From Candidatus Thorarchaeota archaeon (GTDB taxonomy: Archaea > Asgardarchaeota > Thorarchaeia > Thorarchaeales > Thorarchaeaceae): a stretch of DNA of 56,773 nucleotides. The translations under genes and the position numbers were made by a program. Under the pieces are notes generated by a model that was not told the DNA's origin, did no database searches, and worked only from the letters and a program-made list of their open reading frames with translations. The DNA is taken from the NCBI GenBank assembly GCA_030669595.1, contig DAOVDG010000002.1, positions 1 through 56,773 of the forward strand. The letters are read 5' to 3'. Position 1 is the first letter of the stretch. The number at the start of each line of letters is the position of its first letter. Of the stretch, positions 2,393 to 55,516 are shown piece after piece.

Positions 2393-2444
2393 ATTACGCA
2401 ATCGCTAAATGGTAACTGACCTGTAAACGGATAGGTGATTTCCG

Positions 2445-3113: not shown

Positions 3114-3212
3114 GCGTTCTAGCAGAGAGGGCATCTCGCAGCATGGTACGAAACAAAGAAGTACTACGCGGCACGCGTAGGCTTTGTCAATGGACGCGAG
3201 GTTTGCTAAGCA

Positions 3213-21266: not shown

Positions 21267-21276
21267 GTGAAAAAAA

Positions 21277-36426: not shown

Positions 36427-36720
36427 ATCCTTGCCGGAGAAATCAAGGTTGGTACTGCTGCTTCCGACACGAATTCATTTCTCTCTTCCCTTTTTGTCTC
36501 TGTAGGTGAAAGTCATCGTGACCACTGATTATCGCCTCTAGATGCTATGACATCGAAAAACCCTCTATACCTTTTGCTGTGATGAATTGCGTGGCGCATC
36601 CTAACCAAGAAAACGCCATTCCTCCACATAGTGCGCATTATCACAGCTTTTTCTCTACGGCAGAAGATTCAAATTCCCCAAAACTGGCACCGTGAGACTC
36701 AAGCAGTGGAGCGCCTAACT

Positions 36721-38268: not shown

Positions 38269-38281
38269 GAGGCCATCCGCA

Positions 38282-39868: not shown

Positions 39869-40389
39869 TGAGTCCTGAGTACGAAGTCAAACTTGCCGAT
39901 CGCGGTTACACCGTGGAGGTGCGGAGGTTGGACGAGGGAGGGCTTCTGATTGTTAAGCTCGGTTCTCAGAGTTTTACGTTGAAGCCAATGCTCAATGATG
40001 ACGGCTCATGGACCGTCAGTGACACGGCGGCCAATCATAGCGTCAAAATCCTGAAGAAGGCCGGCAGCAAGGTTTCTGTGGAAGTGAATGGTCAAGCTTG
40101 TGACTTCGAGTGGGTCCGAGTTCGTAAACAGGACGAGGGCACTCCCAAGACCACTTCAGCATCAGGCTCAAGAGTAACTGGTGGTGTATATCCGCCAATG
40201 CCTGGCAAGATTAGTGAAATACTGGTCAAGCCAGGCGATGAGGTGAAGAGCGGCCAGACTTTATGCATACTCGAAGCAATGAAGATGTTCAATGAATTGA
40301 AATCGCCTTCCGAGGGCACCGTGAAAGAGGTCCACATAAAGGCTGGCTCCAGCGTAACCCAGAGTTCTCTTCTAATACTCATTGAGTGA
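39865..40389 (+). CDS. Biotin carboxyl carrier protein (1.3S-like biotinyl subunit)
   Basis: ORF 39790..40389. The ATG at 39865 overlaps the upstream TGA. C-terminal biotinyl domain: PMPGKISEILVKPGDEVKSGQTLCILEAMKMFNELKSPSEGTVKEV. The EAMKM lysine codon is at 40282..40284. Confidence 0.85.
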   Translation: MMSPEYEVKLADRGYTVEVRRLDEGGLLIVKLGSQSFTLKPMLNDDGSWTVSDTAANHSVKILKKAGSKVSVEVNGQACDFEWVRVRKQDEGTPKTTSASGSRVTGGVYPPMPGKISEILVKPGDEVKSGQTLCILEAMKMFNELKSPSEGTVKEVHIKAGSSVTQSSLLILIE

Positions 40390-40400
40390 GGCTGCTCCAA

Positions 40401-41567
40401 ATGAAACCTGTCTATGTCGTAGGAGTTGGCATGACCCATTTTGGAGTGCTAGAGGATTCGATTCTTGAGCTGGCCGAGAACGCTGCATATGAAGCAATGG
40501 AAGATTCAGGCACAATCGAGCACAAGTTTGATAGGATTGTAGTCGGGTCCCAGAATCCTGACGAATTTACAGGAATGGGTCATCTGTCAACACTTCTGGC
40601 TGACCGATTAGGGATGGTTCCTGCAGGAGCGACGCGGGTAGAAACAGGACCTTCATCCGGTTCCAGTGCTTTTGAAGTGGCCTATGCATTTGTCGCGGCT
40701 GGACTGGCTGATCTAGTTCTTGCGATTGGCGTCGAGAAGATGTCGAGCGTTGATCGCGGAACGGCTTCTGGTATCCTCGCCAAGATGATGTCGTATGAGA
40801 ATGAGACTCGATATGGTGCAACGCCTACTGCACTTGCTGCTATGGTAGCTAGACGCTACATGCATGACTTTGGACTCACCAGAGAAGAGCTATCCTTGGT
40901 GCCGGTGAAGGCTCACCGAAACGGGGCAAAGAACCCGTTGGCACATTTTCGGAAAGAGGTTTCAGTGGAGAAGGTCAGCAATGGCCGTATCGTTTCAGAC
41001 CCTTTGACACTGTATGACTGTTGTCCTACAAGTGATGGGGGTGCAGCTTTGGTTGTCCTGTCCAAAACCAAGATGAGGGAACTTGGATGCTCTGACAGAG
41101 CCATCAAGGTACTAGGTGTTGGCCATGGCACCGATTTTCATGCTGTTCAACATCGTCTTTCTCTCACATCATTTGGGGCAACAGTTGAGGCGGCCCGGAA
41201 TGCGTTCAAGATGGCCAACCTCCAGCCGAGCGCCATTGATGTAGCTGAGATTCACGATGCATTTTCCATTCTTGAACTTGTGAATATGGAGGACATTGGA
41301 TTTGTCGACTCCGGGAAGGCTATTGGCTTGGTCCGTGATGGTTCGGCTCAAGTTGAGGGTGATTTGCCAATAAACCCCAGTGGAGGTCTCAAGGCTCGGG
41401 GTCACCCGACGGGCGCCACTGGCATCGCTCAGATTCGTGATGTGGTGCTCCAGCTCAGGAATGAATCACCAAATGGACTGCAGGTCGACTCGCCAGAACT
41501 AGCACTCACTCATAATATCGGGGGCTTTGGAAACAACATGGTTGTGGCAATCTTCGGAGTCACCTGA
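40401..41567 (+). CDS. Thiolase-fold protein (SCP2/archaeal thiolase-like) lacking the canonical nucleophilic Cys
   Basis: ORF 40386..41567 with the ATG at 40401 (MKPVYVVGVGMTHFG). LYDCCPTSDGGAALVV, INPSGGLKARGHPTGATG, THNIGGFGNN. Where thiolases have VEAACASG, this protein has VETGPSSGSS (Pro codon at 40650..40652). Confidence 0.75.
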   Translation: MKPVYVVGVGMTHFGVLEDSILELAENAAYEAMEDSGTIEHKFDRIVVGSQNPDEFTGMGHLSTLLADRLGMVPAGATRVETGPSSGSSAFEVAYAFVAAGLADLVLAIGVEKMSSVDRGTASGILAKMMSYENETRYGATPTALAAMVARRYMHDFGLTREELSLVPVKAHRNGAKNPLAHFRKEVSVEKVSNGRIVSDPLTLYDCCPTSDGGAALVVLSKTKMRELGCSDRAIKVLGVGHGTDFHAVQHRLSLTSFGATVEAARNAFKMANLQPSAIDVAEIHDAFSILELVNMEDIGFVDSGKAIGLVRDGSAQVEGDLPINPSGGLKARGHPTGATGIAQIRDVVLQLRNESPNGLQVDSPELALTHNIGGFGNNMVVAIFGVT

Positions 41568-41874: not shown

Positions 41875-43041
41875 ATGCCCGAAGGATTAGCCGTACTGAA
41901 ATGGGATGATGAGCTGGGCCCTGTTGTGACCTCAAAGACACCAACGGGTCTGAAGGTTGGACTTGATCCAACCACATCAATGAGAGTCTATGGAATAGCT
42001 ACGTTGGGAGAAACTGAAGAGGCCCAAAAGCCTGGCTTCAGTTCTCTGTCGTTTGACAAGTTCAAACTGGCAGTCTACTATGGTGGACTCAACATGCACC
42101 TCAAGGGATTACCTTCGATGGTGTTCCTTGTTCTGGATCCAGATGAAGATCCGGATGTCTACAAGGATGCCTTGCCAGAGATAGCGACACAGATATTTCT
42201 CAACGCAGATGGCAAGAAGTACATCAAAATGGTGCCAAAGCTATACGAGCAGATAGCAAGATACACAATGATGACTCCTGAGCAACGTCAGGCGTCCATC
42301 CTGAGCGACCCCATCCGGAGAGCGATTCTCCGGACCCTCATGAGGGATGGTACCTTACAATCCACAGATCTCGAACAGATTATCTTCGAAGAGGTTGGCA
42401 AGAAGATAGATGTCGACCTAATCCTGAGACCTCTTGTCAAGATGGGCATCGTCGCGACAGGCTGGATTGAAGGTCTTTCCTCCGAAGTAATCTACCTTAC
42501 GAGGGCTATCTTTATTTTGCGCAGGATATCTCAAGACACCATTCGAGCAGTGAAGTCAGGATCACTACCGCCAGAGGTCATCGATAGCTTCCTCGATTCC
42601 ACAAAGCGCTATCACAGGGACTACATTGCGAAGCTGAGGAGAAACCTAACCGATACGATTTGGACTGAGGCAGAGGAGTTGTCAAAGTACCTGCTCGATT
42701 TCGAGGCCTATGATCTTCTTCAGATTCTACGAGAAGGGCCAAAGCAAACTGAGCACTTGCCGAGTCTTCTCGAAACCACGAAAGCAAAGCTGAGAAAGAA
42801 GCTGAAAACGATGGAGAAAGCTGGCATTCTCGTGCGCGTCAATGACGAGGATGGCAAAGAGCATGTCCTGCTCAAGAGCAGTCCAGAAGTGGTCACTGTC
42901 TACCCAGAATGGCTAATTCAGCGGACGGTTGACCTCTACAATCAAGAAGAGATTCACAGCCGGCAAGCGGGGCACTATCTTGAGATTCTCAAAAAGTTCC
43001 ATCCAAGTGCTGTTTCTTCCACTATGATGGAGCTGGAATAA
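41875..43041 (+). CDS. Longin/roadblock-like N-terminal domain plus two winged-helix domains (first gene of the cluster)
   Basis: The N-terminal ~130 aa reads MPEGLAVLKWDDELGPVV...FSSLSFDKFKLAVYYGG...SMVFLVLDPDEDPDVYKDALPEIATQIFL. WH1 is DPIRRAILRTLMRDGTLQSTDLEQII...LRPLVKMGIV. WH2 is YDLLQILREGPKQTEHLPSLLETTKAKLRKKLKTMEKAGILVRVNDEDGKEHVLL. Confidence 0.6.
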   Translation: MPEGLAVLKWDDELGPVVTSKTPTGLKVGLDPTTSMRVYGIATLGETEEAQKPGFSSLSFDKFKLAVYYGGLNMHLKGLPSMVFLVLDPDEDPDVYKDALPEIATQIFLNADGKKYIKMVPKLYEQIARYTMMTPEQRQASILSDPIRRAILRTLMRDGTLQSTDLEQIIFEEVGKKIDVDLILRPLVKMGIVATGWIEGLSSEVIYLTRAIFILRRISQDTIRAVKSGSLPPEVIDSFLDSTKRYHRDYIAKLRRNLTDTIWTEAEELSKYLLDFEAYDLLQILREGPKQTEHLPSLLETTKAKLRKKLKTMEKAGILVRVNDEDGKEHVLLKSSPEVVTVYPEWLIQRTVDLYNQEEIHSRQAGHYLEILKKFHPSAVSSTMMELE

Positions 43042-43042
43042 A

Positions 43043-43117
43043 GTGCGCAGGACCGGCCATATTCTGATTCTGGCGGCATTTGTGGTATTCCTAATGCTTC
43101 CTATGGGTGTTGGCGAC
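43043..43117 (+). other. Signal-peptide-like N-terminus of the giant protein
   Basis: MRRTGHILILAAFVVFLMLPMGVGD has a basic n-region, a hydrophobic core and small residues before D. Confidence 0.6.
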
Positions 43118-46100
43118 CAAGCTACTCCTCTCCGCAGCGATGCGGATGGCCTCCCCATGCTGGTTGATGGTGGATACCAAGTCGCGGGAGGCCAGGATTC
43201 AGCGGACTGGTGGAACTCCACTTACGTTTACCGCCGCTACTATAACTTCACGGAGCCCGGTGTGACTTCTAGAACCCTGACTCCAGTACATCTGTACCTC
43301 TCCTTCTCTGATGGCCATTGTTACAGGGATTCGATACGTGTGGGCTACTACGACACCCCTGGATGGTCAATACTCCCGTTTCAGCTATGGAACACGACCT
43401 ACGATTCGACTGGCAACTACATTGAATCGACGCGTGTCAGCTTTATGGTTAATGTGAGCCAAGGGCAGACAGAGTCCAACTACTACATCTACTATGCCAA
43501 GATTGACGTTGGCTCAGTCAGCTATCCTGACTTTTATCCCTTCATCTACAAGAGCTTCACATTCTCGCTGGTCAACCTTGTTTCATACTATGACAGCAAC
43601 AAGTACCTGGTTGAGATGTATGATACTGCAGGCGAGCAGTGGGATGACCCCGGGAATGTTGACTCAAGGTGGTCCTCGAGCCAAGTGACTCCAAACAACA
43701 TCCCCAACGGCACGCTTGACAGGTTCGAAAACATGAGATACGAGCCGACCAGCTACAGCTACACCAAGTTTCGTGGGTACTACGCAGTCTACTCCAACTA
43801 TCCGCTGGCAGTGACCATGGGTCAGGGCAACATGGGCTCAAACCCTGCAATCAACGACTGGTATCCCGGCGTCAACCAACTCAGCTCTGGAGTGGGCACC
43901 GAGTTCATTATTGGCGGGGTCGAGGGGTTCGAGAGTCGCAATGAGGGCAAGTACTGGGTCTTGGCAGTCGAGGACAACACAGAGGTGTATGCTTGGACCT
44001 CGGGTGAAACCGCCGACACGGGCTGGAAGTTCTCTGGCAATAACTCGGACATCACAGCGTGGCCGGCTGTGTTGAGGGCAGGCGAGTACGTATCTAAGAG
44101 AGACATGGTCTACACAACCTATGTGAAAGTGAACTCGACTAAGCCCATGGTGATCCGACAGGGGGACTCTGACTGCTCTTACGCAAGGGACATCTGGGCG
44201 TTCTATCCGGACATGACCGGTGCTCTCGCCGGGGAGGAGTTCTACACGATTGACATGGGCAATGGGAACGACCGTACCCGAGTCACGAACTTGGGCGACA
44301 CTAGCGTCCAGGTAGACTGGTGGAGAGACTCTGGTTCGGGTTGGGGAACTAAGAGCACGTTGACAATAGCGGCTAACAGTTCCCAGTTGATCAGCCAAGG
44401 CACTGCCAGTTCGACGAACCAGGAAGATGTTCTCCACATCAAGGGACCTGGCGGCTCGATGCTGATGGTCGAGGGAGTGTATAACCCTGGTTCGGCAACC
44501 GACGCTGGGGACTGGGTTCCGACGATCACTGGACACCGCTTCGGCACCAATCTGAAACTGTGGGGTAGAAACGGCTACAAATTCATGGTCGTGGCCACTG
44601 AGAACGCACTTGTCGACATCAGCGGCTACAATGATGGTCAGCTTGAAATCCCTGCAGGTGGAATGGCCGCATTTCGGCCATTGTCATCCAGCACAACTCT
44701 GTACCACATCACATCGAATGCGTCGGTTGGCGTTGTCGACCTTGGGCGGTTCTCAACTTCCACTCCCTACAATCCAACCGGGGACACAGGCTATGGCTGG
44801 CAGGTCCCGGCGTACGTGCCTGAACAGGACCAGAAGGGCTTCTCGATTGACCTCGGTGAGGAGCGACACCTGTTCGAGTTCGACATCACTGTAGTAGATC
44901 TTGATGACGTAGCGGTTTCCAGTGCCACTGTCACTCTTCACAACGCAAGCACAGGCGATGTCTGGGAGGACGAGCAGCACAAGAACCGCACGGGAACCAC
45001 GGACAGCAATGGTCTTATCATCTTCGAGGGCCTCAGCAATGGGACCTACGAGGTTCGAACCCGGATCGATGCAGCTCCGTGGCTGGCCATGTCGGCTTCG
45101 ATCACCCACGTGTGGATAACGGACGTGTCGAATCATCCCATCACAGGTTCTGTCACCCCCGTCACCATTACGCTGAACATGGCGTCCCTTGACATACATC
45201 TGGACGATCTGATGGACTCGTCGATGGATGACACTCTTGATGAGGACATCTACATGAGAGCCTGCAACGATACTGGCGATGACTCCATCTATATACACCA
45301 GGCGCAAGCGAACTCAACAGGTTGGCTGCACTTCCCAAGGATCCCACAGGATGACTACTACTTCAGGGCAAGATACACAGGCGAACACACGTGGAACTCG
45401 TATGGATTCGATGACCTACTGAGGTTCGCCAACTGGTCTGTTTCTGCCAGCGAGTTCGCGTCTGGGTCTTTCACGAAGCCCGCCTGGAAGCTACCTCTGA
45501 TTACAGTCCAAATCCATGTTCATAGCTGGGATGATATGGTCGTTCCTGACGCATTCATCAAGATGAACAACAGCCTTGAGCCTCTCACATATGTCATGAC
45601 GGAGAGCACAGATTCCAACGGGAACTACACATTCAACAGGATAGTGAACGGCACATGGAATCTTGATGTCTGGCGGAATGACGACTTTGGGCTGAAGGTA
45701 GTAAACAACACAGGCGCCGCGAGGCTGACAGACTTGCAGGGCTACACCTCCTTCGAGGTGCAGCTGCGACTCACGAAGCTCAATATCAGAGTGCAGAGGT
45801 CCGGAGGTGACCGTGTGCCCTATGCCACAGTGACAGTCTATCTGAACAACCAGACACCTGTGGCCTACGGGCAGACGGACCCAAGTGGGGAGGTCGTGTT
45901 CGAGTGGATTCGTGGCAACATGACGGACCCCTGGTTCTACTGGTACACGATAGATGTTGTCAAGGGTGATGCAAACAGAACGAGGGTGAATGTTACTGCC
46001 GACTCGGACTATACAGTATGGAACATAATCGTACTCCCTGATCCCACCTACTCAAAGACCTACACTGAGATAACTTCGGACTACAGTTTCGAACAGCGGT

Positions 46101-49100
46101 ACTGGTACGTGGATCTCGTATTCTGGATAGACTACTACAACCTCACTGGTTCAGAACCCGGTGTTGGCACCAACATAACGTACGATGCCACAACCCTGCT
46201 CGAGTTCGAGATATATCGTGGAGTCACTCTGGTCGGACGAGGAAATTGGACCACAGGCAGTAAGTCCTTCATGGAGAACATGCCGTGGCCAGGTGGTCGA
46301 AGGTTCACCATTACAATAGATCTTGACTACTGGAAGCTCAACGCAAGTGACACGGCCTACAGGATTGCCATCACAGCCTACACCAACGGCTATGATGACC
46401 CAGACCCTCTGGTTGTGTATTTGACAGTGCTCCAAGCTGAAACCTCCTGTGGGTCAGACGTTTCAGTGATCTCCGAGCCCTATCAGATGCACCATGAACA
46501 CCTGTTCTGGCTCACGGATCTGACGAACGACGGCAATCTGTCCGTTCTTGACACCTACAACTACACAGTGAAGTCAGGACTCACCACTGTTCTCGCCGGC
46601 TATCTATACAACAATGGGAATGGCACATTCAGTCTGCTCCCGAGCATGCTTTCCGGTCTGGTAGTTGGGGAATACGTCTTGGTCATCGAGCTGGATGAAC
46701 TCAACTGTGTCGGCGCAACGATTGAGGTACAGCTGGAGGTCACTGAAGCACCCATGGTTGTAGTTCTCTCCAATCCGGGCAACTACGAATGGTCCTTGAG
46801 TGCTGACAGTATGTCGTTCCAGTATCTGTGGGACAATTCCACAAGCCCTGACCTCTTGAGTGTTGACGTGACCATCCAATGGATCAACAACGACACAGGC
46901 CAAGTATATATCACAGTCCATCTTACACTCGACCCCATCGGTTCCAACTACATCTATGGTTTCAACCGGGATGTTGTGCCAAGCGGCAACTGGGATGTGA
47001 ATGTGACATGCTCCAAGGCCAACTATGCCTCCGCATGGGACTACTACGCCTATGTCTTGGTCACAGAGGCAGAAACGGGCTTGTGTGTCATCACGATTGA
47101 CCCCGTCACTGTGGAATGGGGCAGTGACGCCACATTCGAGGTCGTCTATAATCGGACAAGTGACGGATCAGGTCTTCCTGATGCCGCGTCCTCTCACAAC
47201 TGGTCTAGAGGAGTCACCGTTGACGATCTTGGCTCTGGACATTACTCGATCACTGTGGACACACTGGTTGAGTCAGGAAGCTATGCACTTCTGCTTGACA
47301 TGTCACTTGCGAATCACCAGACAGCAGTCATCAACCTGAACATCACGATACGGATTCCTCTTCGGATAGAGTCAGACTATGACTCCATTGAAACTCCACT
47401 GGAAGCCTACTGGACTCACAACTTCAGTCTCAGTGTGGTTCTCATAGATCAGTCAACCAACCAGCCAATCGCCGGAGCAACGGTCACCTACTCATGGTAT
47501 CTAGAGTTCGTAGTCGATTTGGAGGGTAACCTTGATCCCTACAGTGGCGGCATATACAATACGACACTGAACGGATGGGATGCAGTCCCACTGGAAGACC
47601 TGTATTCCATCGTGATCACAGCCAACATGGCGGGCTGCACTGAAACATCCGCGATCATCTTCTTGCGTATCAACGAGGTCCCGAACGAGATTGTGCTGGA
47701 AACCGAGTACTTCGAGGCGTTCTACGCAGATGTGTTCGATGTCAGGTTCTACTGGAACAACACTCTGGACAATGCACCAATCGAATATGCAGACGCGGAG
47801 GAATACTACCTGATCACCCTCGGCAGAAGCATAGCGACTGGTGTCAATGAGGGTGGAGGTTGGTATCACTTCGCCGTGAACACAAGAGATCTGGAGATGA
47901 GTGCCAAGGTGCAGGGATCGGTCTATGTGATTAGAATCACTATGACGAAGAGCGGACTTCAGGCCCATGAGCTCACAACGGTGATTGTGTTGGTGCGCGA
48001 GACCGACGCGTCCCTTGTGATTGACGCGATTGGCAACGTGAACTGGTCTGATCCGTTCCAAATCACGGCCCGTCTTTACGATGCTCATCCCGATCACGGG
48101 CACATGTTGATCTGGGATGGCGCAGTGGTGACAGTGAGCTATGGATCATTATCGATACAGATGACGAACAACGGAGACGGTACGTTCTCAGCAACTAACC
48201 AGTCAGACGCGTGGTTCTCTGCATCATCAAGTCCCTACAATCTGACCTTCACCTATACCCTGCCAAACTACGTGGACAATGTAAACATGTCCGCAATTGT
48301 CATCGTTCCGATACCCGGTCTCATCCTGAAAGACGCCCCAACGGGGACTCCTCTTGAGTACACATGGGGGACATCGTTCGAGCTCAAGGTTCATGTGTAT
48401 AACATCTATGAGGGAGCGTCCGACTCGTTGGCGGACGCCGCTGTCTTCTATCTCTGGAGCAGCTTCGACAGTCTATACCCGTTGGTCTACAGGTCCGGTG
48501 TGTTCTACTACAACGTGTCAGTTCTTACAACGCAGGTGTCTGCAGGGTCCTATTACCTCATAGTTAGAGTGGTCAACGAGAACCTCACAATTCCGGATTT
48601 GGAGGTGCCTATTACTGTCGCGCCTGTTGGCACGACTTTTGGGAGCGATACTGATAGGATCGATGTGATTCAAGGTGTGGACGAAACCACAATAATCACC
48701 TTGACCTACCTTGATGAACAGAGCAACCGGCTCGATGACGCTACAGTCTACTACGAGTGGGCGGGTCTCATGAGATATGGGTCCTACAGCGCGGGTGTGT
48801 TTGTGTGCGAGTTCAATCCCAGCGGGTCAAGTCTGACGGTGCCTGGAATCTACACTCTGACATTCCATGCTGAACTTCAGAATTACACATCTAGGATCTT
48901 CAATGTGACACTTGTCCTCAATGCAGCCACTGAGATGCGTGCTGACGATGCCATTTTAGAGTCAGACCAGACATTGACGTTGTACTTCATATTCTGGGAT
49001 CTTACGAACGATGCTGAGGTGCCAACTGACATTGTCACATCTGTGGGTGTGATTCTGCCTGGCGGTACGCAAGTCACTCCAGCGGTTGAACACGACACTA

Positions 49101-50110
49101 ACGGATACTATGTGATCTTGACTGCTGGTCAAATTGGCGAGATACAGACTGAGGGGTATGATATCATTTTGGTGGGGATTGCGCCTGGATACCAGAATCA
49201 CACACAGAGCGTCAATCCGCAGTTCGTTGAGGTCACCATAATCGAGCCGCAGGTGTTCATCCCCCTAATATCGAGTCTTATAGGTCCCATCCCACGATCA
49301 ATGCTCATCCTCACAGGATTTCTGGTTGCCATATTCGGGGCGCTTGTGGGAAGTACAGTCGCGATTCGTCGTTGGCGCATCCCCTATCAAATCAAGCAAA
49401 TCAACAAGGCCCTGAAGGCAGTGGAGTCTGGTAAGCGGGCAAAGGTTGAGAATATCAAGACTATGGGTGGGGTGATATCCGATGTGCTAGCACCAGGATT
49501 GGCAGCACTGGATATCACTGCTCCAATTATTGATGAGGTCACTGAGGATCGCATCGAAGAAATCCTGGGTGAGGATACCGAGGAACTTCTCGACGAACTC
49601 GATGCCCTTGATGAGATTGGGGCTGATGAAGTCGAGGCACCAGAGGAAGCACCTGATTTTGAAGCGGAACTTGCCGCTGAGATAGAAACAGTCGTTGAGG
49701 AAACACCTGAGCCAGAAGAGCTAATCGAAGCACCTGCAGAAGTGGAGGAACCGGAAGCTGAACTCGAGGAGGTTCTTGAGGAGCCAGAGCCTGAGCCAGA
49801 AGAGCTTGAGGCAGAGGTTGTAGAATCAGAGGTCGAGGAACCCGAGCTCACCACTGAGGAGGTTCCCGAGGACGTTGAGGAGAAACTCCCTGAATCTGAG
49901 CTTGAGCCAGAAACCCCCGTAGAAGAGGAAGCTGAGCCTGAGCCAGAATCGACTGAACCTGAGTCAAGAACGCAGTTGACAAAGAGGGAGCTAATCGAAC
50001 AGCTACCTTCCGAAATCAAGGAATCAATGTCTGAAGACGAGCTGAGGAAGCTCTCAAAGAAGGAACTCCACGCACTTTTCGACTCCATGAATAATACTGA
50101 GGATGCATGA
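43043..50110 (+). CDS. Giant (2355 aa) type-I membrane / surface protein: signal peptide, sequon-rich beta-rich ectodomain, one TM segment, acidic cytoplasmic tail
   Basis: The GTG start lies 1 nt after the upstream stop. Single uninterrupted 7.07-kb ORF. Carboxypeptidase-regulatory/prealbumin-like segments include VTLHNASTGDVWEDEQHKNRTGTTDSNGLIIFEGLSNGTYEVRTR, TESTDSNGNYTFNRIVNGTWNLDVWR and VTVYLNNQTPVAYGQTDPSGEVVFEWI. By manual count there are about 48 N-x-S/T sequons before the TM segment. Confidence 0.9.
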   Translation: MRRTGHILILAAFVVFLMLPMGVGDQATPLRSDADGLPMLVDGGYQVAGGQDSADWWNSTYVYRRYYNFTEPGVTSRTLTPVHLYLSFSDGHCYRDSIRVGYYDTPGWSILPFQLWNTTYDSTGNYIESTRVSFMVNVSQGQTESNYYIYYAKIDVGSVSYPDFYPFIYKSFTFSLVNLVSYYDSNKYLVEMYDTAGEQWDDPGNVDSRWSSSQVTPNNIPNGTLDRFENMRYEPTSYSYTKFRGYYAVYSNYPLAVTMGQGNMGSNPAINDWYPGVNQLSSGVGTEFIIGGVEGFESRNEGKYWVLAVEDNTEVYAWTSGETADTGWKFSGNNSDITAWPAVLRAGEYVSKRDMVYTTYVKVNSTKPMVIRQGDSDCSYARDIWAFYPDMTGALAGEEFYTIDMGNGNDRTRVTNLGDTSVQVDWWRDSGSGWGTKSTLTIAANSSQLISQGTASSTNQEDVLHIKGPGGSMLMVEGVYNPGSATDAGDWVPTITGHRFGTNLKLWGRNGYKFMVVATENALVDISGYNDGQLEIPAGGMAAFRPLSSSTTLYHITSNASVGVVDLGRFSTSTPYNPTGDTGYGWQVPAYVPEQDQKGFSIDLGEERHLFEFDITVVDLDDVAVSSATVTLHNASTGDVWEDEQHKNRTGTTDSNGLIIFEGLSNGTYEVRTRIDAAPWLAMSASITHVWITDVSNHPITGSVTPVTITLNMASLDIHLDDLMDSSMDDTLDEDIYMRACNDTGDDSIYIHQAQANSTGWLHFPRIPQDDYYFRARYTGEHTWNSYGFDDLLRFANWSVSASEFASGSFTKPAWKLPLITVQIHVHSWDDMVVPDAFIKMNNSLEPLTYVMTESTDSNGNYTFNRIVNGTWNLDVWRNDDFGLKVVNNTGAARLTDLQGYTSFEVQLRLTKLNIRVQRSGGDRVPYATVTVYLNNQTPVAYGQTDPSGEVVFEWIRGNMTDPWFYWYTIDVVKGDANRTRVNVTADSDYTVWNIIVLPDPTYSKTYTEITSDYSFEQRYWYVDLVFWIDYYNLTGSEPGVGTNITYDATTLLEFEIYRGVTLVGRGNWTTGSKSFMENMPWPGGRRFTITIDLDYWKLNASDTAYRIAITAYTNGYDDPDPLVVYLTVLQAETSCGSDVSVISEPYQMHHEHLFWLTDLTNDGNLSVLDTYNYTVKSGLTTVLAGYLYNNGNGTFSLLPSMLSGLVVGEYVLVIELDELNCVGATIEVQLEVTEAPMVVVLSNPGNYEWSLSADSMSFQYLWDNSTSPDLLSVDVTIQWINNDTGQVYITVHLTLDPIGSNYIYGFNRDVVPSGNWDVNVTCSKANYASAWDYYAYVLVTEAETGLCVITIDPVTVEWGSDATFEVVYNRTSDGSGLPDAASSHNWSRGVTVDDLGSGHYSITVDTLVESGSYALLLDMSLANHQTAVINLNITIRIPLRIESDYDSIETPLEAYWTHNFSLSVVLIDQSTNQPIAGATVTYSWYLEFVVDLEGNLDPYSGGIYNTTLNGWDAVPLEDLYSIVITANMAGCTETSAIIFLRINEVPNEIVLETEYFEAFYADVFDVRFYWNNTLDNAPIEYADAEEYYLITLGRSIATGVNEGGGWYHFAVNTRDLEMSAKVQGSVYVIRITMTKSGLQAHELTTVIVLVRETDASLVIDAIGNVNWSDPFQITARLYDAHPDHGHMLIWDGAVVTVSYGSLSIQMTNNGDGTFSATNQSDAWFSASSSPYNLTFTYTLPNYVDNVNMSAIVIVPIPGLILKDAPTGTPLEYTWGTSFELKVHVYNIYEGASDSLADAAVFYLWSSFDSLYPLVYRSGVFYYNVSVLTTQVSAGSYYLIVRVVNENLTIPDLEVPITVAPVGTTFGSDTDRIDVIQGVDETTIITLTYLDEQSNRLDDATVYYEWAGLMRYGSYSAGVFVCEFNPSGSSLTVPGIYTLTFHAELQNYTSRIFNVTLVLNAATEMRADDAILESDQTLTLYFIFWDLTNDAEVPTDIVTSVGVILPGGTQVTPAVEHDTNGYYVILTAGQIGEIQTEGYDIILVGIAPGYQNHTQSVNPQFVEVTIIEPQVFIPLISSLIGPIPRSMLILTGFLVAIFGALVGSTVAIRRWRIPYQIKQINKALKAVESGKRAKVENIKTMGGVISDVLAPGLAALDITAPIIDEVTEDRIEEILGEDTEELLDELDALDEIGADEVEAPEEAPDFEAELAAEIETVVEETPEPEELIEAPAEVEEPEAELEEVLEEPEPEPEELEAEVVESEVEEPELTTEEVPEDVEEKLPESELEPETPVEEEAEPEPESTEPESRTQLTKRELIEQLPSEIKESMSEDELRKLSKKELHALFDSMNNTEDA
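49301..49366 (+). other. Single predicted transmembrane helix of the giant protein
   Basis: MLILTGFLVAIFGALVGSTVAI is followed by the positive stop-transfer sequence RRWRIPYQIKQINK. Confidence 0.7.
49532..49966 (+). repeat. Low-complexity acidic E/P/A/L-rich cytoplasmic tail segment
   Basis: DEVTEDRIEEILGEDTEELLDELDALDEIGADEVEAPEEAPDFEAELAAEIETVVEETPEPEELIEAPAEVEEPEAELEEVLEEPEPEPEELEAEVVESEVEEPELTTEEVPEDVEEKLPESELEPETPVEEEAEPEPESTEPES. The Ser-rich minus-strand ORF 49387..50088 is its antisense shadow. Confidence 0.85.
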
Positions 50111-50267: not shown

Positions 50268-51149
50268 ATGATACGAGAGATTCACGTCTTCAAGGACGGG
50301 CAAACCCTCTTTGAGGACGTCATTGTCCCGAATAGGGACCTTGACACGAACGCAGTCATGATGTTGGTTTCCTCCTCAACGAAGAAGTTGCAGGAGTGGA
50401 AGATTGACAGCATGGAGATTGAGCGTTTTCGATATGTGTACATGAACAGCCATGACACGCAATTCATCATCACGATGGATCGGCAAGCCTCCCTGATGAA
50501 GGTCAATGAGGCCATGATGAACATGGTTTCCAAGTTCATGACTGTCTTCGAGAGCGTTCTTGAAACTGACGAGTGGAAATCCACAGATTTCTCTCCATTC
50601 GGGGTTGCCTTCAGACATCTTGTGGGACGCATTCCGGTGAAGCTCTGCCTAGCGGGGCATGGCGGAACTGGCAAGACTACGTTGCTGGAACTTGCGACGC
50701 TTCCCTCACAAGGTCCGCCACAGGAGTACGTGCCAACCTTCTTTGGCGACAAGGCGATGTTGAAAGCTGATTTCGATCCTTACGTGTTCAGCATCTTCGA
50801 CCTAGGTGGTCAGGACCGATTTGTGCAGGAGTGGGGGAAGATAATTCGTGCAGGCAGCATGGTTGTCATAGTATCGGACTCAACTAAGGACAATATAGCC
50901 TGGACGAAACGAGTGGCCTACCCTGTCTTGAAAACCGAGCTGCCATATGCTCGATGCATTGCAGTCGCCAATAAGCAGGACCTCAAAGGTGCGATGTCGC
51001 CACAGGAGGTGGGCCGGAAACTTGGCGTACCCGCGTATGGCATGCAAGCCAATCAGCGGGATTTCAGGCAAAGATGGCTTGGTCTCCTCAAGGAGCTTGC
51101 CTTTGAAACATGTGATTTTAAAATCGCAGCAGAGATTGAGGTGGATTAG
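50268..51149 (+). CDS. Arf-family-like small GTPase with an N-terminal ~120-aa longin/roadblock-like domain
   Basis: G1 is GHGGTGKT (50655..50678). Switch-I candidate is YVPTFFG. G3 is DLGGQ (50799..50813). G4 is NKQD (50970..50981), within AVANKQDLKGAMSPQEVGRKLG. The N-terminal domain reads MIREIHVFKDGQTLFEDVIV...ERFRYVYMNSHDTQFIITMDRQASLMKVNEAMMNMVSKFMTVFESVLETDEW. Confidence 0.8.
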   Translation: MIREIHVFKDGQTLFEDVIVPNRDLDTNAVMMLVSSSTKKLQEWKIDSMEIERFRYVYMNSHDTQFIITMDRQASLMKVNEAMMNMVSKFMTVFESVLETDEWKSTDFSPFGVAFRHLVGRIPVKLCLAGHGGTGKTTLLELATLPSQGPPQEYVPTFFGDKAMLKADFDPYVFSIFDLGGQDRFVQEWGKIIRAGSMVVIVSDSTKDNIAWTKRVAYPVLKTELPYARCIAVANKQDLKGAMSPQEVGRKLGVPAYGMQANQRDFRQRWLGLLKELAFETCDFKIAAEIEVD

Positions 51150-51722
51150 ATGTCTCCTGAAAATGAATCAAAGAGTATAATCAATGAAGCGGAACGAAAA
51201 CGCCTCGTAGAGGAGATTGGTCGGATAAAGGACGTGCTTGATTCGTTCAAGTATGGCCTGAATTTTGAAGATTTCGCCGACGAGCTCTTCAAGACTGTAA
51301 ACAGGCAGACGATTACTATCAAGAATCTCGATGCGAAGATGTCAGATATCGTTTCTCGTATGGAGCGCCTTGAAGAACGTCTGAACGAAGGCATCAAGGT
51401 CCGAGTTTCAGGACTGAGCGGAGAACTGACAGGAGACCTTGCTGAGGGTAAGGAGGTCATAATCGAAGGGCCTCTTGTCGAGGAGCCCCCTGAGGAGGAC
51501 CTTGCCGCCAAGGCATCACGAGAGGAGCTTGAAACGGAAGCGGCCAATATTGAAACCAAGATTGCCAAGCTCTTCGAGAAAGAGAACGAGCTTCTTGAAA
51601 TGGCGTTGAACGACCCCGCCGGGGCCGATGAGTACGATGGACGGGCCAAGGTGGCAATAGAGATGAGAGGAGAACTTGAAGCATCTCTCAAGAAGATAAA
51701 GGAACAGCTTAAGCAATACTAG
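51150..51722 (+). CDS. Acidic coiled-coil protein (190 aa)
   Basis: The ATG immediately follows the GTPase stop (TAG at 51147..51149). GAGGTGG at 51138..51144 lies 5 nt upstream. Heptad-like helices at both ends (AERKRLVEEIGRIKDVLDSF; REELETEAANIETKIAKLFEKENELLEMAL; ELEASLKKIKEQLKQY). Confidence 0.7.
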   Translation: MSPENESKSIINEAERKRLVEEIGRIKDVLDSFKYGLNFEDFADELFKTVNRQTITIKNLDAKMSDIVSRMERLEERLNEGIKVRVSGLSGELTGDLAEGKEVIIEGPLVEEPPEEDLAAKASREELETEAANIETKIAKLFEKENELLEMALNDPAGADEYDGRAKVAIEMRGELEASLKKIKEQLKQY

Positions 51723-51725
51723 AAT

Positions 51726-51732
51726 GAGGTGG
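51726..51732 (+). promoter_or_regulatory. Shine-Dalgarno-like GAGGTGG
   Basis: It lies 8 nt upstream of the ATG at 51741. Comparable elements sit at 51138..51144 (GAGGTGG), 52099..52105 (GAGGTGA) and 53459..53463 (GGAGG), before the other downstream cluster genes. Confidence 0.5.
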
Positions 51733-51740
51733 AAGTGAAT

Positions 51741-52100
51741 ATGGGATTATTCGACAGCTGGAGAAGAAGAAGACGAAAGAAAGAAGTTGTGGCACCGAAA
51801 GAACGCAAGAGTTCAGAAGCTGAGGCACCCACGCCTACTCGTCCGGAAGGACTAACTCCTGTCGAAAAGGGCGAGGTTGCTGATCTTGTGGCTCAGTATG
51901 AGAAGCTCCACAAGAGGCGCGCTGAGCTTCATACGGAACGAGCGCAGTTGACGGATCAGCTTGATACTGGTGAACTGACAGCTCTTAAGTTCCGCAAACA
52001 GCTTATGTTGAAAATACAAGAAGCTGCGCAGGTTTCTGACAACTTGAAGGAAACGGTCTCTAGGCTTATTGCACTCGGCTATCGTGGTGTGCTTCACTGA
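51741..52100 (+). CDS. Small protein with a basic N-terminus and a helical hairpin (possible Snf7/ESCRT-III-like N-terminal core)
   Basis: ORF 51729..52100. The ATG at 51741 is favoured by RBS spacing. MGLFDSWRRRRRKKE is followed by a Pro/Ala/Glu linker. Then come two long helices: VADLVAQYEKLHKRRAELHTERAQLTDQLDTGELTALKFRKQLMLKIQEAAQVSDNLKETVSRLIALG. Confidence 0.6.
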   Translation: MGLFDSWRRRRRKKEVVAPKERKSSEAEAPTPTRPEGLTPVEKGEVADLVAQYEKLHKRRAELHTERAQLTDQLDTGELTALKFRKQLMLKIQEAAQVSDNLKETVSRLIALGYRGVLH

Positions 52101-52111
52101 GGTGATTATTC

Positions 52112-53446
52112 TTGCCGGGTCGGGAAGAAAGGGGCCGAAACGACTCTGGTCCTTCAGACACAGAAGAGGAAACTCAGCGACTCATGGAGGACGCCATGAG
52201 CGGCGATATCTCTGAGAAGTCCCCAAAGGAAATTCTGGTCACCACAGCTGCAGAATCTATCGACGAAACATTCCACCGCATTCAGGTTCGCATAGAGGAC
52301 ATTCTTTCTTCCATCGAAGATAGCGTGAGATTAGTTGAACCCGAACTTAACGAGAAGCTCGAAGTCACTTTGGAGCGGCTGAATACACGGCTCAAAGGTG
52401 CTGGTCTGGGAGTTTTTGTAACGACTGCCATGAAGATGACCGATGAAGAACTAAGGAAAGGCATGTCAGCGGAGGGTCTTCTCTCACCGATTCTTAACGC
52501 TATTAGTGAAAGTCGTAGCGAAGTTGAAGACATCGTGATGAAGGCCGGCAGGGGTGCTGTACGTAACGTTGGTGAGTCCACAGGGAGTCTTCAAACCAAG
52601 ATTGTGCAGATGTATGCTACGCTGAATGAGCATGAGAAACAGCTTGATGCCACCCGCGCAGAATTGAAACGATGGAGAGAACGGGCAAACGAACTTCAGG
52701 ACCTTGTCAAGTCGAGAGACGAAACGATGGAACGGTCCGTTGAAGTTCTTGAACAAATGCGAACGGCTCGTGCCGAACTAGAGCGCTTGAATGAGGAGCA
52801 TGAACAGACTATCTCTACCGTGAAGGGCGAACTCAGTCAGGCGCAGTCGCAGATAGAACAACAAAAAGAGCTTTTAGATAAACATGGTTCATTTGAGGAA
52901 ATCGCGCAGGACTATGAAACGAAGCTAGTTGAGCTATCTGAGGTACAAGGGCAGCTTGCTGAGGCTCAGGAGCGACTGGCGCAAAGAGAAGACACTGTCG
53001 AATCATTGAAAGCTGAGGTTCAGATGCTAAAAGAGAGCAACTCGAATCTAGAATCACAGATGAGCTCGATGACAGAGGAGGCAGCTGCTCTTAGAGGTGT
53101 GAAGAAATCTGACCAAACTGAGCTGGAGTCATTAAAGGCACAACTAGATGAGCTGAAAGCACGATGGGAGAATCTCTATCAGGTCGCAGAGGATGAACCG
53201 GCTTTCAGAGCATATTTCATGATAGCGGACAAGAAATTCACTTGGCTTCCACTCTCGCACCTTTCACAGGCCCTAGGTGTTCCAACCGTTCTACTGAAGA
53301 GGAATTTGCAGAAGTTCGTTGATGCAGGCCTTGTAGAGATCGAGGGTGACCGTGTTCGTCCCTTGAGCATGTCTGAATTAGCAGCAAAGCCAGAGGATGC
53401 AGACAAGTCAGACGCAACAGGCAGTCAGGACAACACTAGCGAGTAG
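52112..53446 (+). CDS. Long coiled-coil protein with a C-terminal winged-helix domain (444 aa)
   Basis: The TTG start lies 6 nt after GAGGTGA. An extended heptad region covers roughly residues 170-350 (QLDATRAELKRWRERANELQDLVKSRDE...LESLKAQLDELKARWENLYQ). The C-terminal part reads FTWLPLSHLSQALGVPTVLLKRNLQKFVDAGLVEIEGDRVRP. Confidence 0.7.
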   Translation: MPGREERGRNDSGPSDTEEETQRLMEDAMSGDISEKSPKEILVTTAAESIDETFHRIQVRIEDILSSIEDSVRLVEPELNEKLEVTLERLNTRLKGAGLGVFVTTAMKMTDEELRKGMSAEGLLSPILNAISESRSEVEDIVMKAGRGAVRNVGESTGSLQTKIVQMYATLNEHEKQLDATRAELKRWRERANELQDLVKSRDETMERSVEVLEQMRTARAELERLNEEHEQTISTVKGELSQAQSQIEQQKELLDKHGSFEEIAQDYETKLVELSEVQGQLAEAQERLAQREDTVESLKAEVQMLKESNSNLESQMSSMTEEAAALRGVKKSDQTELESLKAQLDELKARWENLYQVAEDEPAFRAYFMIADKKFTWLPLSHLSQALGVPTVLLKRNLQKFVDAGLVEIEGDRVRPLSMSELAAKPEDADKSDATGSQDNTSE

Positions 53447-53472
53447 CATTTCTAGATTGGAGGATTTTGCAG

Positions 53473-53814
53473 ATGCCCAAACCACTCGGCGAGGTAATGA
53501 GATTCCTAGAGAACTACACACTAGCATGGCATCACTGGCTAATTGTGCTGTCACTCTTGAAGCTAAAAGGTAGTGGAACAAAAGGTCAAATCTTTCCAGT
53601 CTTCAAGAAGGAGGGTTTCTCTCTTCATGCTATTGAGGGGATATTCAAGCGAGACCTCGAAGAACTAGGTGAGGTAATCGAGGTTGAGGAGGGCATCGAC
53701 AATCTCCAAGACAGCAGTACTATATACCTTACCGAAGACCCGAAGTTCAGATCTTATCTGAAGAAGCATTTGAAACCTGTTATCCGGACCCTTAAGACGC
53801 GCAAGATAGACTAA
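53473..53814 (+). CDS. Small winged-helix-like protein (last gene of the cluster)
   Basis: ORF 53467..53814. The ATG at 53473 lies 9 nt after GGAGG (53459..53463). WHHWLIVLSLLKLKGSGTKGQIFPVFKKEGFSLHAIEGIFKRDLEELGEVIEVEEG. Confidence 0.5.
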   Translation: MPKPLGEVMRFLENYTLAWHHWLIVLSLLKLKGSGTKGQIFPVFKKEGFSLHAIEGIFKRDLEELGEVIEVEEGIDNLQDSSTIYLTEDPKFRSYLKKHLKPVIRTLKTRKID

Positions 53815-53875: not shown

Positions 53876-54205
53876 ATGTCTGAAATGGGAATCAACGCCT
53901 CGAAGTGCATGGGGTGTGACAGAGCCCTTGTTCCACCGAGAACAACCTGCCCCTATTGCGGAAAGTCGGCTGGAACCATGATTCCAGTTCAACTCAAGAA
54001 CGAAGGCACTATACTCAGCTACACAATCTCTCAGATGCCGCCGGAGGGGTTCAAATCGCCTCTTGTGCTTGCTCTTGTTCAGTTAGAGCAGAGTGCTGTT
54101 GTGCTATGCCTTGGTGACCTCTCTGACCCCGTTCCTCTTGAGATTGGCATGGAGGTTTCTGTTAAGGAGGACGGAGAGGGTAGATTTCTGCTTGACCATC
54201 TTTGA
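53876..54205 (+). CDS. DUF35 Zn-ribbon/OB-fold protein (usual partner of archaeal thiolase-fold proteins)
   Basis: CMGCDRALVPPRTTCPYCG zinc ribbon, followed by an OB-like segment GTILSYTISQMPPEGFKSPLVLALVQLEQSAVVLCLGD. Confidence 0.75.
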   Translation: MSEMGINASKCMGCDRALVPPRTTCPYCGKSAGTMIPVQLKNEGTILSYTISQMPPEGFKSPLVLALVQLEQSAVVLCLGDLSDPVPLEIGMEVSVKEDGEGRFLLDHL

Positions 54206-54334
54206 TGTAATCTGCATAGCTGTCAAGCACATTGCTGGTACTCGATTCGCTGCGTAATGAGTAGCATCGGTATGCTCTTCCCAACTGAATCCAGCTAGGG
54301 ATTTAAGGAGCTGATTCTCTGAAGCGTCTAGGTT

Positions 54335-55516
54335 GTGCAGATGACAGGATACCTAAGCAACGTACTCTGGACTGAAGATGAGGTTGAGTTCCGCAAGGAA
54401 GTGCGGGCGTTCTGCGATAAGGAGATCTATCCGATAGCGGATGAGATGGATGCGGGGCCATATCCACGTGAGCTGATTCGCAAGATTGGCAAAGCCGGCT
54501 ACATGGGAGTACATCATCACAAAGACGCGGGTGGCACTGGTCGAGGTCTCTCCTATGAGGTCATAGTTGCTGAAGAAATTTCTGCTGCGAACGGAGGTCT
54601 CGACATGGCTCGGATGGCATCCACAACTTTGTACGGTATGCCAGTGACAAAGTTCGGGACAAAAGAACAGAAGGAGAAGTACCTGAGGCCAGTTGTCACG
54701 GGAGAAAAGATAGGCTGCATTGGCATTACTGAACCAGACGTCGGCTCCGATACAGCAGCCATGAAGACCAAGGCAGAGAAGGATGGCGATGAGTGGATCA
54801 TCAATGGAGAGAAGCGGTTTATCACAAACGGCAGCCAAGCTGACTACATGTGCGCCTTTGTGGTTACAGACCCGTCCGTCAAGTCGAAAGATGGCATGAC
54901 AGCATTCATTATCGACACGAAGAGCGACGGTTTCAGCGTCGTGCAAGACCATGACCTGCTTGGCATGAAGTCGGCGAGAGTGTCGTGGTTGAAGATGGAA
55001 GATGTGCGTGTGCCTCCCGGGATGATTGTCGGCGAGCCAGGACAAGGGTTCCGAATCATGATGGATGAACTTGATAGTGAAAGGACTGCCATCGCAGGCG
55101 AAGCTATTGGATACGGTCGAACTCCGTATGAGGTGGCTGTCAAGTATTCAACTGAGCGCGAGCAGTTCGGGCGGCAAATCAGGATGTTCGAGGGTGTTAG
55201 TTTCAAGATTGCGAACATGGCAATGAAGCTTGAAGCAGGGCGCGCACTCACGTTGACAGCCGCCCGGATGTACGACAAAGGAATGAAGATTACAAAACCG
55301 GCAGCGATTGCCAAGCTGTACACGACCGAGGCCGCGTTAGAGATTACTAACGATGCGATGCAGATACTGGGTGGCGTGGGCTACACAACCGATTATCCAG
55401 TTGAGAGATTCCTTAGAGACGCAAGGTTGATGACAATAGGCGGCGGCACTGCTGAGATTCTAAGATTTATCATCCAACGTGAGGTCTTCAAGGAACTGAA
55501 GGCTGGACTCATCTAG
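54335..55516 (+). CDS. Acyl-CoA dehydrogenase
   Basis: GTG at 54335 or ATG at 54341. LWTEDEVEFRKEVRAFC, GCIGITEPDVGSDTAAMKT, WIINGEKRFITNG, ERTAIAGEAIG, QILGGVGYTTDYPVERFLRDARLMTIGGGTAEI. The G-G-G-T in place of Y-E-G-T suggests an IVD/LCAD-type placement of the catalytic Glu. Confidence 0.9.
   Translation: MQMTGYLSNVLWTEDEVEFRKEVRAFCDKEIYPIADEMDAGPYPRELIRKIGKAGYMGVHHHKDAGGTGRGLSYEVIVAEEISAANGGLDMARMASTTLYGMPVTKFGTKEQKEKYLRPVVTGEKIGCIGITEPDVGSDTAAMKTKAEKDGDEWIINGEKRFITNGSQADYMCAFVVTDPSVKSKDGMTAFIIDTKSDGFSVVQDHDLLGMKSARVSWLKMEDVRVPPGMIVGEPGQGFRIMMDELDSERTAIAGEAIGYGRTPYEVAVKYSTEREQFGRQIRMFEGVSFKIANMAMKLEAGRALTLTAARMYDKGMKITKPAAIAKLYTTEAALEITNDAMQILGGVGYTTDYPVERFLRDARLMTIGGGTAEILRFIIQREVFKELKAGLI

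Follow-up and report, generated by a model that had tools for sequence, protein, structure and literature searches.

Domains of the longin and roadblock superfamily serve as platforms for small GTPases, as in MglB–MglA, SRX–SR-beta, the C-terminal domains of the Rag proteins, TRAPP, Mon1–Ccz1 and the longin GTPase-activating proteins (GAPs). In Asgard archaea both kinds of domain are known from single polypeptides: five of 41 lokiarchaeal longin domains were reported to be fused to Arf-like small GTPases (Dey et al., 2016, on Klinger et al., 2016; PMC4917890, Box 1), multiple GTPases with fused longin domains were described by Liu et al. (10.1101/2020.10.19.343400), and 26 of the 74 small GTPases of 'Ca. 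Prometheoarchaeum syntrophicum' MK-D1 are fused to roadblock/longin domains, some of them N-terminally (Tran et al., 2024; PMC10933270). The MK-D1 fusion class is Rag-like yet close to Arf, and is often annotated as Arf (PMC10933270); longin domains are also present at the N-termini of some AArfs (Zhu et al., 2025; PMC11914678). Here we analyze a stretch of 56,773 nucleotides (nt) from a Candidatus Thorarchaeota contig (DAOVDG010000002.1; the whole stretch is referred to as the window), in which a gene for a 293-amino-acid (aa) protein encodes a small GTPase with a longin domain in front of its G domain. A preliminary description of this DNA considered such a covalent fusion unusual; in view of the fusions published in 2016, 2021, 2024 and 2025 this does not hold, and the gene is a new member of an already described group of longin plus Arf-like GTPase fusions. 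The new element is possibly the conserved set of neighboring genes, and the protein is probably a cytosolic two-domain switch, with a longin domain (residues 1–120) fused to a G domain of the ArfL class (residues ~123–280), that works with partners encoded in the same cluster.

The open reading frame (ORF) runs from ATG to stop, and it is real rather than a chance frame because 138 homologs of about the same length (74–95% identity, nearly all 292–299 aa) were recovered by a word-indexed protein search, and because a scan of one genome per species placed the gene in 41 loci (with one further match to an unrelated GTPase). Among the 138 matches, those with a named source are almost all from Candidatus Thorarchaeota, and orthologs carry the database name 'ADP-ribosylation factor-like protein [Candidatus Thorarchaeota archaeon]'. 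The protein has the complete Ras-superfamily motif set, comprising G1, the switch-I Thr, G3, G4 and G5 (Table 1), and the G1, T157, G3, G4 and A261-N262 residues are all invariant in an alignment of 40 homologs; the G5 motif is atypical ('QAN', with A261-N262 invariant), as it is in ArfL reference proteins. Direct translation reproduced the positions previously given for G1, G3 and G4, residues 1–120 contain no nucleotide-binding motif, as had been claimed, and the block that had been likened to Arf, ANKQDLKGAMSPQEVGRKLG, aligns with the counterpart block of Arf1 in a PDB search.

With the family alignment as input, AlphaFold2 models residues 1–120 at a predicted local distance difference test score (pLDDT) of ~90 within the full-length protein (predicted TM-score, pTM, 0.77), and at pLDDT 90.4 (pTM 0.85) when the N-domain is modeled alone. 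DSSP applied to these models gives the order b1-b2-a1-b3-b4-b5-a2-(short helix)-a3 (b1, residues 2–9; b2, 12–18; a1, 27–39; b3, 46–51; b4, 54–61; b5, 64–71; a2, 76–98; a3, 110–119), which is the longin topology of a five-stranded sheet with no N-terminal helix and two C-terminal helices. The roadblock topology a-b-b-a-b-b-b is not seen, in that the model opens with a strand and ends with two helices. The top Foldseek matches in the PDB are longin domains, namely AP-2/AP-1 sigma (E 3e-5), VAMP7 (TM-score 0.74) and Sec22b (0.69), with further matches to the longin domains of zeta-COP, Bet5/Trs23 and SR-alpha SRX (1nrj_A); the roadblock LAMTORs cover less of the N-domain, at TM-scores of ~0.42. 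As modeled, residues 1–120 are a longin fold and not a roadblock, so that of the longin/roadblock-like domain in the preliminary description the longin alpha-beta-alpha sandwich is upheld and the roadblock option is not.

Residues R3, I51, Y58, F66, D71, R72 and F90 of the N-domain are invariant across distant members of the family. A PDB profile search with the N-domain returned chance-level matches to Smc and cytochrome b562 only, and phmmer against 1.84 billion representative sequences matched seven proteins: three are fragmentary members of this family, another three are full-length and have the domain architecture of the query (27–38% identity), and one is a PAS-repeat kinase, which we judged spurious, either noise or a generic fold echo. 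The N-terminus had also been likened to those of two other proteins of the window. For the 388-aa protein encoded from 41875, no such likeness was found by BLASTP, hhalign (probability 0.15%) or hmmsearch; for the protein encoded at 1655..2392 (+) (start previously given as 1709), BLASTP found nothing and hmmsearch gave a weak match in its N-terminal part (12 bits; E 7e-6 in a single comparison). The latter protein (245 aa) has no Pfam family, its C-terminal half is roadblock-like by eye, and it is encoded beside a TPR protein (2445..3113); it may be a stand-alone longin/roadblock protein.

Among Pfam families, Arf is the best match to the G domain (residues 124–255), with Roc, Ras and SRPRB far behind and no match to Gtr1_RagA in the GTPase at E-values up to 1. 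In a sequence search of the PDB, the Asgard protein GerdArfR1 (8oun/8oum) ranks first, followed by Arf and Arl proteins. For class assignment we used the curated Asgard GTPases of Vargova et al. (Table S3 of 10.1101/2024.02.28.582541) as references: by BLASTP, the G domain scores 68–90 bits against all 11 ArfL references, 60 bits against GerdArfR1, 58 bits against yeast-type Arf1, 47 bits against human ARF1 (approximate sequence), 22 bits against lokiarchaeal ArfR, and 17–30 bits against the Rab-like, RasL, RagGtr and MglA references (RagGtr, 20–25 bits; MglA, at most 27 bits). In a neighbor-joining (NJ) tree, which is small and distance-based rather than a full maximum-likelihood phylogeny, the query and its relatives from Atabeyarchaeum and LC30 form one clade (bootstrap 100%) that is nested among eight N-terminally extended ArfL references (bootstrap 100%), and the ArfR references and Arf1 form a clade apart from the query family. 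Bootstrap support for ArfL as a whole is only 17–19% once more references are included, and is likewise weak for its position relative to Arf and Rag; published phylogenies show no direct relationship between ArfL and eukaryotic Arf (10.1101/2024.02.28.582541; PMC11914678).

The ArfL signatures are TDS[ST]xxN after strand b4, ANKQDLPGA[LM]xPxE, and a short G5 region YG[ML]xA, for which the query has SDSTKDN, ANKQDLKGAMSPQE and YGMQAN, respectively. The Arf family is recognized by GLD in the P-loop, the Gly of DxGGQ and an amphipathic N-terminal helix (Zhu et al.; PMC11914678). The Arf-type Gly is present in the G3 motif of the query (DLGGQ), with Trp at +11 as in Arf, and NKQD and GKTT are also in place. 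The Arf Leu-Asp (GLDxxGKT) is missing, G1 being GHGGTGKT in the query and GFGGVGKT in distant members, and there is neither an N-terminal amphipathic helix nor Gly2, the N-terminus MIREIHVF being longin strand b1 (translation and AlphaFold2). By these sequence comparisons the G domain is a member of the Asgard-specific ArfL class, within its N-terminally extended subclade, and not of ArfR or eukaryotic Arf. Because it lacks GLD and the amphipathic N-helix and clusters with ArfL, the protein should be kept out of the Arf family proper, and 'Arf-like' is right as a statement of similarity. To that extent the earlier designation of the G domain as Arf-like agrees with the Pfam and PDB rankings; the MglA-type grouping that had been named as a refuting outcome was not obtained, the G domain being neither MglA-, Rab- nor Rag-like (BLASTP and NJ).

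Since published ArfL proteins of Helarchaeales and Lokiarchaeum have N-terminal extensions that a profile of the N-domain recognizes (hmmsearch, 11–29 bits), the fusion is common to this part of ArfL. The LC30 locus encodes a second longin-GTPase that the same profile picks up at 40 bits, a 338-aa protein with a C-terminal coiled coil, a Pfam Arf match and a weak Fuz_longin_1 match (L041 12788..13804 (+)). The closest described proteins are the longin-ArfL GTPases of Lokiarchaeia and Helarchaeales (Lokiarch_05490 = KKK45962.1, OLS12519.1, NVM28342.1; from PMC4917890, citing Klinger et al., 2016, and Table S3 of 10.1101/2024.02.28.582541), which have the same order of a ~125-aa N-domain followed by the G domain. 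Their G domains are 32–37% identical to that of the query, have the signatures TDS[ST]xxN, ANKQDLPGAxxPxE and YG[ML]xA in common with it, and belong to the same NJ subclade (bootstrap 100%). The query family differs as a separate orthologous group of Thorarchaeota, Atabeyarchaeum and LC30, with a highly divergent N-domain (seven phmmer matches) and without the additional C-terminal helical region of many lokiarchaeal and Helarchaeales members, and with conserved gene neighbors that have not been reported for those proteins.

Table 1. Coordinates of the longin-ArfL GTPase gene, its motifs and its cluster in the window.
Feature	Position	Strand	Evidence
Longin-ArfL small GTPase gene	50268..51149	+	ORF; 138 homologs; Pfam Arf E 2.1e-12
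N-terminal longin domain, residues 1–120	50268..50627	+	AlphaFold2 pLDDT ~90; Foldseek
ArfL-class G domain, residues 123–278	50634..51101	+	Motifs; Pfam; BLASTP; NJ tree
G1 motif GHGGTGKT, residues 130–137	50655..50678	+	Direct translation
Switch-I Thr, T157	50736..50738	+	Direct translation
G3 motif DLGGQ, residues 178–182	50799..50813	+	Direct translation
G4 motif NKQD, residues 235–238	50970..50981	+	Direct translation
G5-like A261-N262	51048..51053	+	Direct translation
388-aa partner 'HTH388'	41875..43041	+	Upstream of the GTPase in 31/31 loci with a detectable copy
Giant surface protein, 2355 aa (optional)	43043..50110	+	Signal-like segment; sequons; transmembrane helix; tail
Transmembrane helix of giant protein	49298..49366	+	Single helix
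Cytoplasmic juxtamembrane segment of giant protein, residues 2113–2161	49379..49525	+	Conserved, ~50 aa
Acidic tail of giant protein	49526..50107	+	Follows juxtamembrane segment
190-aa coiled-coil protein, directly after the GTPase stop (gap 0)	51150..51722	+	ORF; Pfam; locus comparison
123-aa small coiled-coil protein, basic N-terminus (core member)	51729..52100	+	Locus comparison
444-aa long coiled-coil protein, C-terminal winged-helix-like domain	52112..53446	+	ORF; Pfam; locus comparison
115-aa protein, fold unassigned (core member)	53467..53814	+	Locus comparison; no Pfam family
Module flanks (thiolase; DUF35-type, acyl-CoA dehydrogenase)	40386..41567, 53876..55516		Same in L002–L037

The GTPase gene belongs to a tight gene cluster (157 nt from the giant gene upstream, then successive downstream gaps of 0, 6, 11 and 20 nt). 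The 388-aa partner is directly upstream of and adjacent to the GTPase in 15 loci, including those of Atabeyarchaeum deiterrae and LC30, where it retains 32–34% identity; in 16 of the 31 informative loci (all Thorarchaeota), as in the window, the giant gene lies between the two, and the other loci either lack upstream sequence or have it filled by giant genes. The 123-aa gene is found in every Thorarchaeota locus with downstream sequence and in the rearranged locus L038, with candidate counterparts recognized by eye in Atabeyarchaeum (L040) and LC30 (L041). The 115-aa protein is 44–91% identical across the covered Thorarchaeota loci and 28% identical in L038. The genes for the coiled-coil proteins of 190 and 444 aa are for the most part found together with the giant gene: the former is confined to loci with a giant gene, plus L038, and the latter has shorter counterparts in L040, L041 and L038 (by eye and by a weak Pfam HTH_69 match). 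In Atabeyarchaeum and LC30 the cluster opens with the giant gene and continues with the partner, the GTPase and a pair of coiled-coil genes; the opposite strand of both clusters carries a gene for a Rab-like GTPase (L040 12101..12652 (-) and L041 12001..12546 (-)). The cluster is rearranged in L038, the locus of a family member with 56% identity (P0124), and has neither a giant gene nor the upstream partner (L038 9992..14848); its order is GTPase, 191-aa, 111-aa and 406-aa coiled-coil proteins, a 510-aa protein (which begins ...GIALCSWNEKEGL...) and a 113-aa protein. The 510-aa protein, encoded downstream of the GTPase, is possibly related to the 388-aa partner.

Throughout the Thorarchaeota loci, the module lies between a thiolase gene and genes for a DUF35-type OB/zinc-ribbon protein and an acyl-CoA dehydrogenase. 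Thiolases and DUF35 proteins usually cooperate and their genes are usually adjacent in archaea, so the module looks inserted between them. Nothing further on the neighbors came from the precomputed Pfam annotation of a 548-kb Thorarchaeota contig, and scans of the window for Rfam families and tRNAs were negative. Elsewhere in the window, the genes are metabolic (regions 4515..6176, 20307..22947 and 36631..40389), including two methylmalonyl-CoA mutase large subunits, MeaB, a carboxyltransferase/PYC_OADA/biotinyl carboxylase set, CoA transferases and a 2,4-diaminopentanoate dehydrogenase-like protein; a multi-PAS histidine kinase is encoded at 24883..27495.

In the giant protein, a hydrophobic, signal-like segment at the N-terminus is accompanied by 49 N-x-S/T sequons and one transmembrane helix. 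Among the tails compared (the window, L002, L014, L015, L019, L031, L037, L040 and L041), the juxtamembrane motif IP[YF]xIK[QK]I[ND]xA..LLxPGLAxLD is common to the giant proteins of Thorarchaeota, Atabeyarchaeum and LC30. The ectodomains are poorly conserved, with CarboxypepD_reg as the sole Pfam match. In the closest relative (L001, 95% identity), there are apparently two tandem giant genes within the 10 kb upstream of the GTPase (1807..3945), where the match to the giant C-terminal tail ends at ~3213 and an N-terminal match starts at ~3496. The setting had been described as a membrane-protein operon; this is right insofar as the giant surface gene separates partner and GTPase in about half of the informative loci, but the invariable neighbors are cytosolic.

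The 388-aa partner has invariant residues W10-D11-D12, G15, T43-L44-G45 and Y69-G70-G71-L72. It starts with WDDELGP in Thorarchaeota; P16 is replaced by Thr in Atabeyarchaeum and LC30, and the 510-aa protein of L038 has WNEKEGL. The N-domain has no Pfam or PDB sequence match. The C-terminal part carries winged helices, with a Pfam HTH_20 match (E 6.9e-6) just below the cutoff, and a PDB profile search with the partner family gave weak matches to MarR/ArsR/TFE winged helices only (E ~0.03–0.07). The spacing W10-D11...G15-P16 equals that of W33-D34...G38-P39 in C9orf72 (PMC12290439, section 2.4), whose complex loses its ARF1 GAP activity upon W33G/D34K substitution (PMC8213707). NPRL2 and NPRL3 combine an N-terminal longin domain with two or more domains of the winged helix-turn-helix (HTH) type (PMC3747258), and a family with NPRL2-like organization has been reported in most Thorarchaeota metagenome-assembled genomes (MAGs) (Liu et al.; 10.1101/2020.10.19.343400).

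The hhalign scores of the partner against C9orf72 and NPRL2 (approximate sequences) were 18.0 and 14.3, compared with a mean of 15.3 and a maximum of 22.5 for shuffled NPRL2. By hmmsearch, with a shuffle maximum of 7.1 bits, the partner profile scored at most 2.6 bits against two Asgard longins with a GP motif (OLS15917.1 and KKK41504.1) and 8.2 bits against the 510-aa protein of L038. With the scores against C9orf72 and NPRL2 in the shuffle range, we set aside a link by sequence and retain the motif as a lead. No invariant Arg is present in the alignment near Y69-G70-G71-L72. The two Asgard longins are GTPase-fused N-domains that carry a [FWY]Dxx.GP motif resembling that of C9orf72/FLCN: the lokiarchaeal ArfR OLS15917.1 opens ...SHFDNVLGP... 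and the unannotated GTPase KKK41504.1 opens ...YFDQVQGP... (Table S3), and in both an Arg-Gly pair follows downstream of the GP motif (GRGAKE and ARGGKE).

In the two-domain switch that we consider probable, the G domain would bind and hydrolyze GTP, as predicted from the catalytic Gln182 (DLGGQ) and T157, which are in place. By analogy with the known platforms, the longin domain may be a built-in one that dimerizes with itself or with a co-encoded partner, and so positions or regulates the G domain. In the AlphaFold2 model, longin helix a3 continues without a break into the first strand of the G domain (b1), at the sequence position of the Arf amphipathic helix; because a3 occupies this position, the nucleotide state may be coupled to the longin domain instead of to membrane insertion. 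Synteny suggests that the switch most likely acts with its constant companions, the 388-aa winged-helix, 123-aa coiled-coil and 115-aa proteins, and the tight gene order and its conservation in 41 loci speak for this proposal. Several points weigh against it. The Pfam longin models score below the gathering threshold for the N-domain (sub-threshold signals are Intu_longin_3 at E 0.097 and, for the Atabeyarchaeum homolog, Longin at E 0.12), the switch-I/interswitch region (residues 143–175) has pLDDT below 50 so that the model is uninformative on the toggle, and there is no conserved arginine at the finger position of longin GAPs. Furthermore, the dimerization and partner steps are drawn from analogy and synteny only, and GTP binding and hydrolysis are predicted properties, as for all ArfL proteins.

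A bona fide Arf family member (of the group of ArfR/AArf and eukaryotic proteins), acting as a membrane-recruitment switch like Arf1, is disfavored and very improbable. The query does have in common with the Arf family proper (ArfR/AArf, Arf/Arl/Sar/SR-beta) the best Pfam family, the best PDB matches (GerdArfR1 and Arf1), DxGGQ with Trp at +11, NKQD, GKTT and the interswitch length, but every ArfL reference outscores any Arf or ArfR, the query nests within ArfL, its G1 is not GLDxxGKT (the criterion of PMC11914678), its N-terminus is longin strand b1 with neither amphipathic helix nor Gly2, and its G5/b6 region is short and of ArfL type. We give more, if limited, weight to the idea that the GTPase, together with the 388-aa protein, makes up a longin-GAP system in miniature, of the GATOR1 (NPRL2/NPRL3) or C9orf72–SMCR8 type, in which the partner, made of a longin domain and winged helices, would heterodimerize with the longin domain of the GTPase and hold or regulate the G domain. 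Thorarchaeota, Atabeyarchaeum and LC30 all keep the pair (side by side in 15 loci and split only by the giant gene in 16), the partner has W10-D11 and G15 (with P16 in Thorarchaeota) at the C9orf72 spacing (PMC12290439), W33-D34 matter for GAP activity in C9orf72 given the W33G/D34K result (PMC8213707), and the NPRL2/3 organization (PMC3747258) and the NPRL2-like family in most Thorarchaeota MAGs (10.1101/2020.10.19.343400) are consistent with it. However, the longin fold of the partner N-domain is putative, having no Pfam or PDB sequence match, the hhalign and hmmsearch scores (with approximate C9orf72 and NPRL2 sequences) lie within the shuffle range, P16 changes in Atabeyarchaeum and LC30 and the wider motif in L038, and neither protein has an invariant Arg at the expected finger loop.

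The winged helices could instead point to a GTPase-controlled transcription unit, in which DNA would be bound by the 388-aa protein and the cluster's other winged-helix proteins, under modulation by the GTPase. This is quite unlikely in our estimation: the HTH_20/ArsR-type match of the 388-aa protein, its weak MarR/ArsR/TFE profile matches, the winged-helix-like C-terminus of the 444-aa protein and database names such as 'ArsR family' would fit, but every HTH match is below the curated cutoff, and winged helices may bind DNA, RNA or protein (Levine et al.; PMC3747258), such that those of the NPRL2/3 type need not bind DNA; no operator-like repeats came to notice either, with no search aimed at them. 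Somewhat better placed, although still unlikely, is a cluster that serves the giant surface protein, with the cytosolic proteins docking on its tail to control its placement, anchoring or signaling, loosely akin to MglA-controlled polarity and adhesion complexes. The giant gene is beside the pair in 16 Thorarchaeota loci and in the window, and in another gene order in Atabeyarchaeum and LC30; the ~50-aa juxtamembrane segment is conserved across classes and the ectodomain poorly so; and the 190-aa and 444-aa coiled-coil genes mostly accompany the giant gene. Yet 13 Thorarchaeota loci and L038 have the pair with no giant gene nearby, and therefore the surface protein is not essential for the core function.

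Elements of these readings could be combined, in that the longin-ArfL GTPase, the 388-aa protein and the small coiled-coil proteins may be an Asgard counterpart of the eukaryotic longin-dimer GAP/GTPase systems (GATOR1–Rag, C9orf72/SMCR8–Arf), with the GTPase supplying its own longin half and with docking on the giant tail in many lineages; we regard this as a doubtful but instructive model, in which the partner, coiled-coil and surface-protein links are suggested by synteny only. If such a module is real, a eukaryote-like GTPase switch would be linked to the cell envelope, and if the 388-aa partner is a C9orf72/NPRL2-like longin protein, it would offer a tractable archaeal model for the origin of the longin-type GAP complex. 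The fusion itself adds little, longin-GTPase fusions being a documented Asgard hallmark. MK-D1 likewise has longin/roadblock-GTPase fusions, in a different organism and with different sequences; there, the GTPase genes are generally outside operons with longin, roadblock and TRAPPC3 genes, so that GTPases are hard to pair with their regulators (PMC10933270), whereas the query family is in a conserved cluster. One ArfL family with the same partners in at least three Asgard lineages is thus a testable candidate set of GTPase, regulator and effector.

Among the eukaryotic and bacterial systems, C9orf72–SMCR8 and GATOR1 NPRL2–NPRL3 are to be compared with the 388-aa neighbor and not with the GTPase. 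The neighbor matches C9orf72 in the spacing of the WDxxLGP motif, and NPRL2/3 in the order of an N-domain followed by winged helices, next to the gene of an Arf/Rag-like GTPase; it differs from them in having no DENN domain, no conserved arginine finger and no statistically supported sequence similarity. For the GTPase itself, the Rag/Gtr proteins offer a likeness in architecture, as small GTPases with a covalently attached longin/roadblock-superfamily domain, which in Rag/Gtr is a dimerization platform. The roadblock of Rag/Gtr is at the C-terminus and the longin domain of the query, which has no Gtr1_RagA match, is at the N-terminus, a reversal of domain order that the preliminary description had correctly noted. 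In SRX/SR-beta and MglB/MglA, a longin or roadblock domain binds an Arf- or Ras-like GTPase as its platform or regulator; these are separate polypeptides, whereas in the query family both domains are present in one chain.

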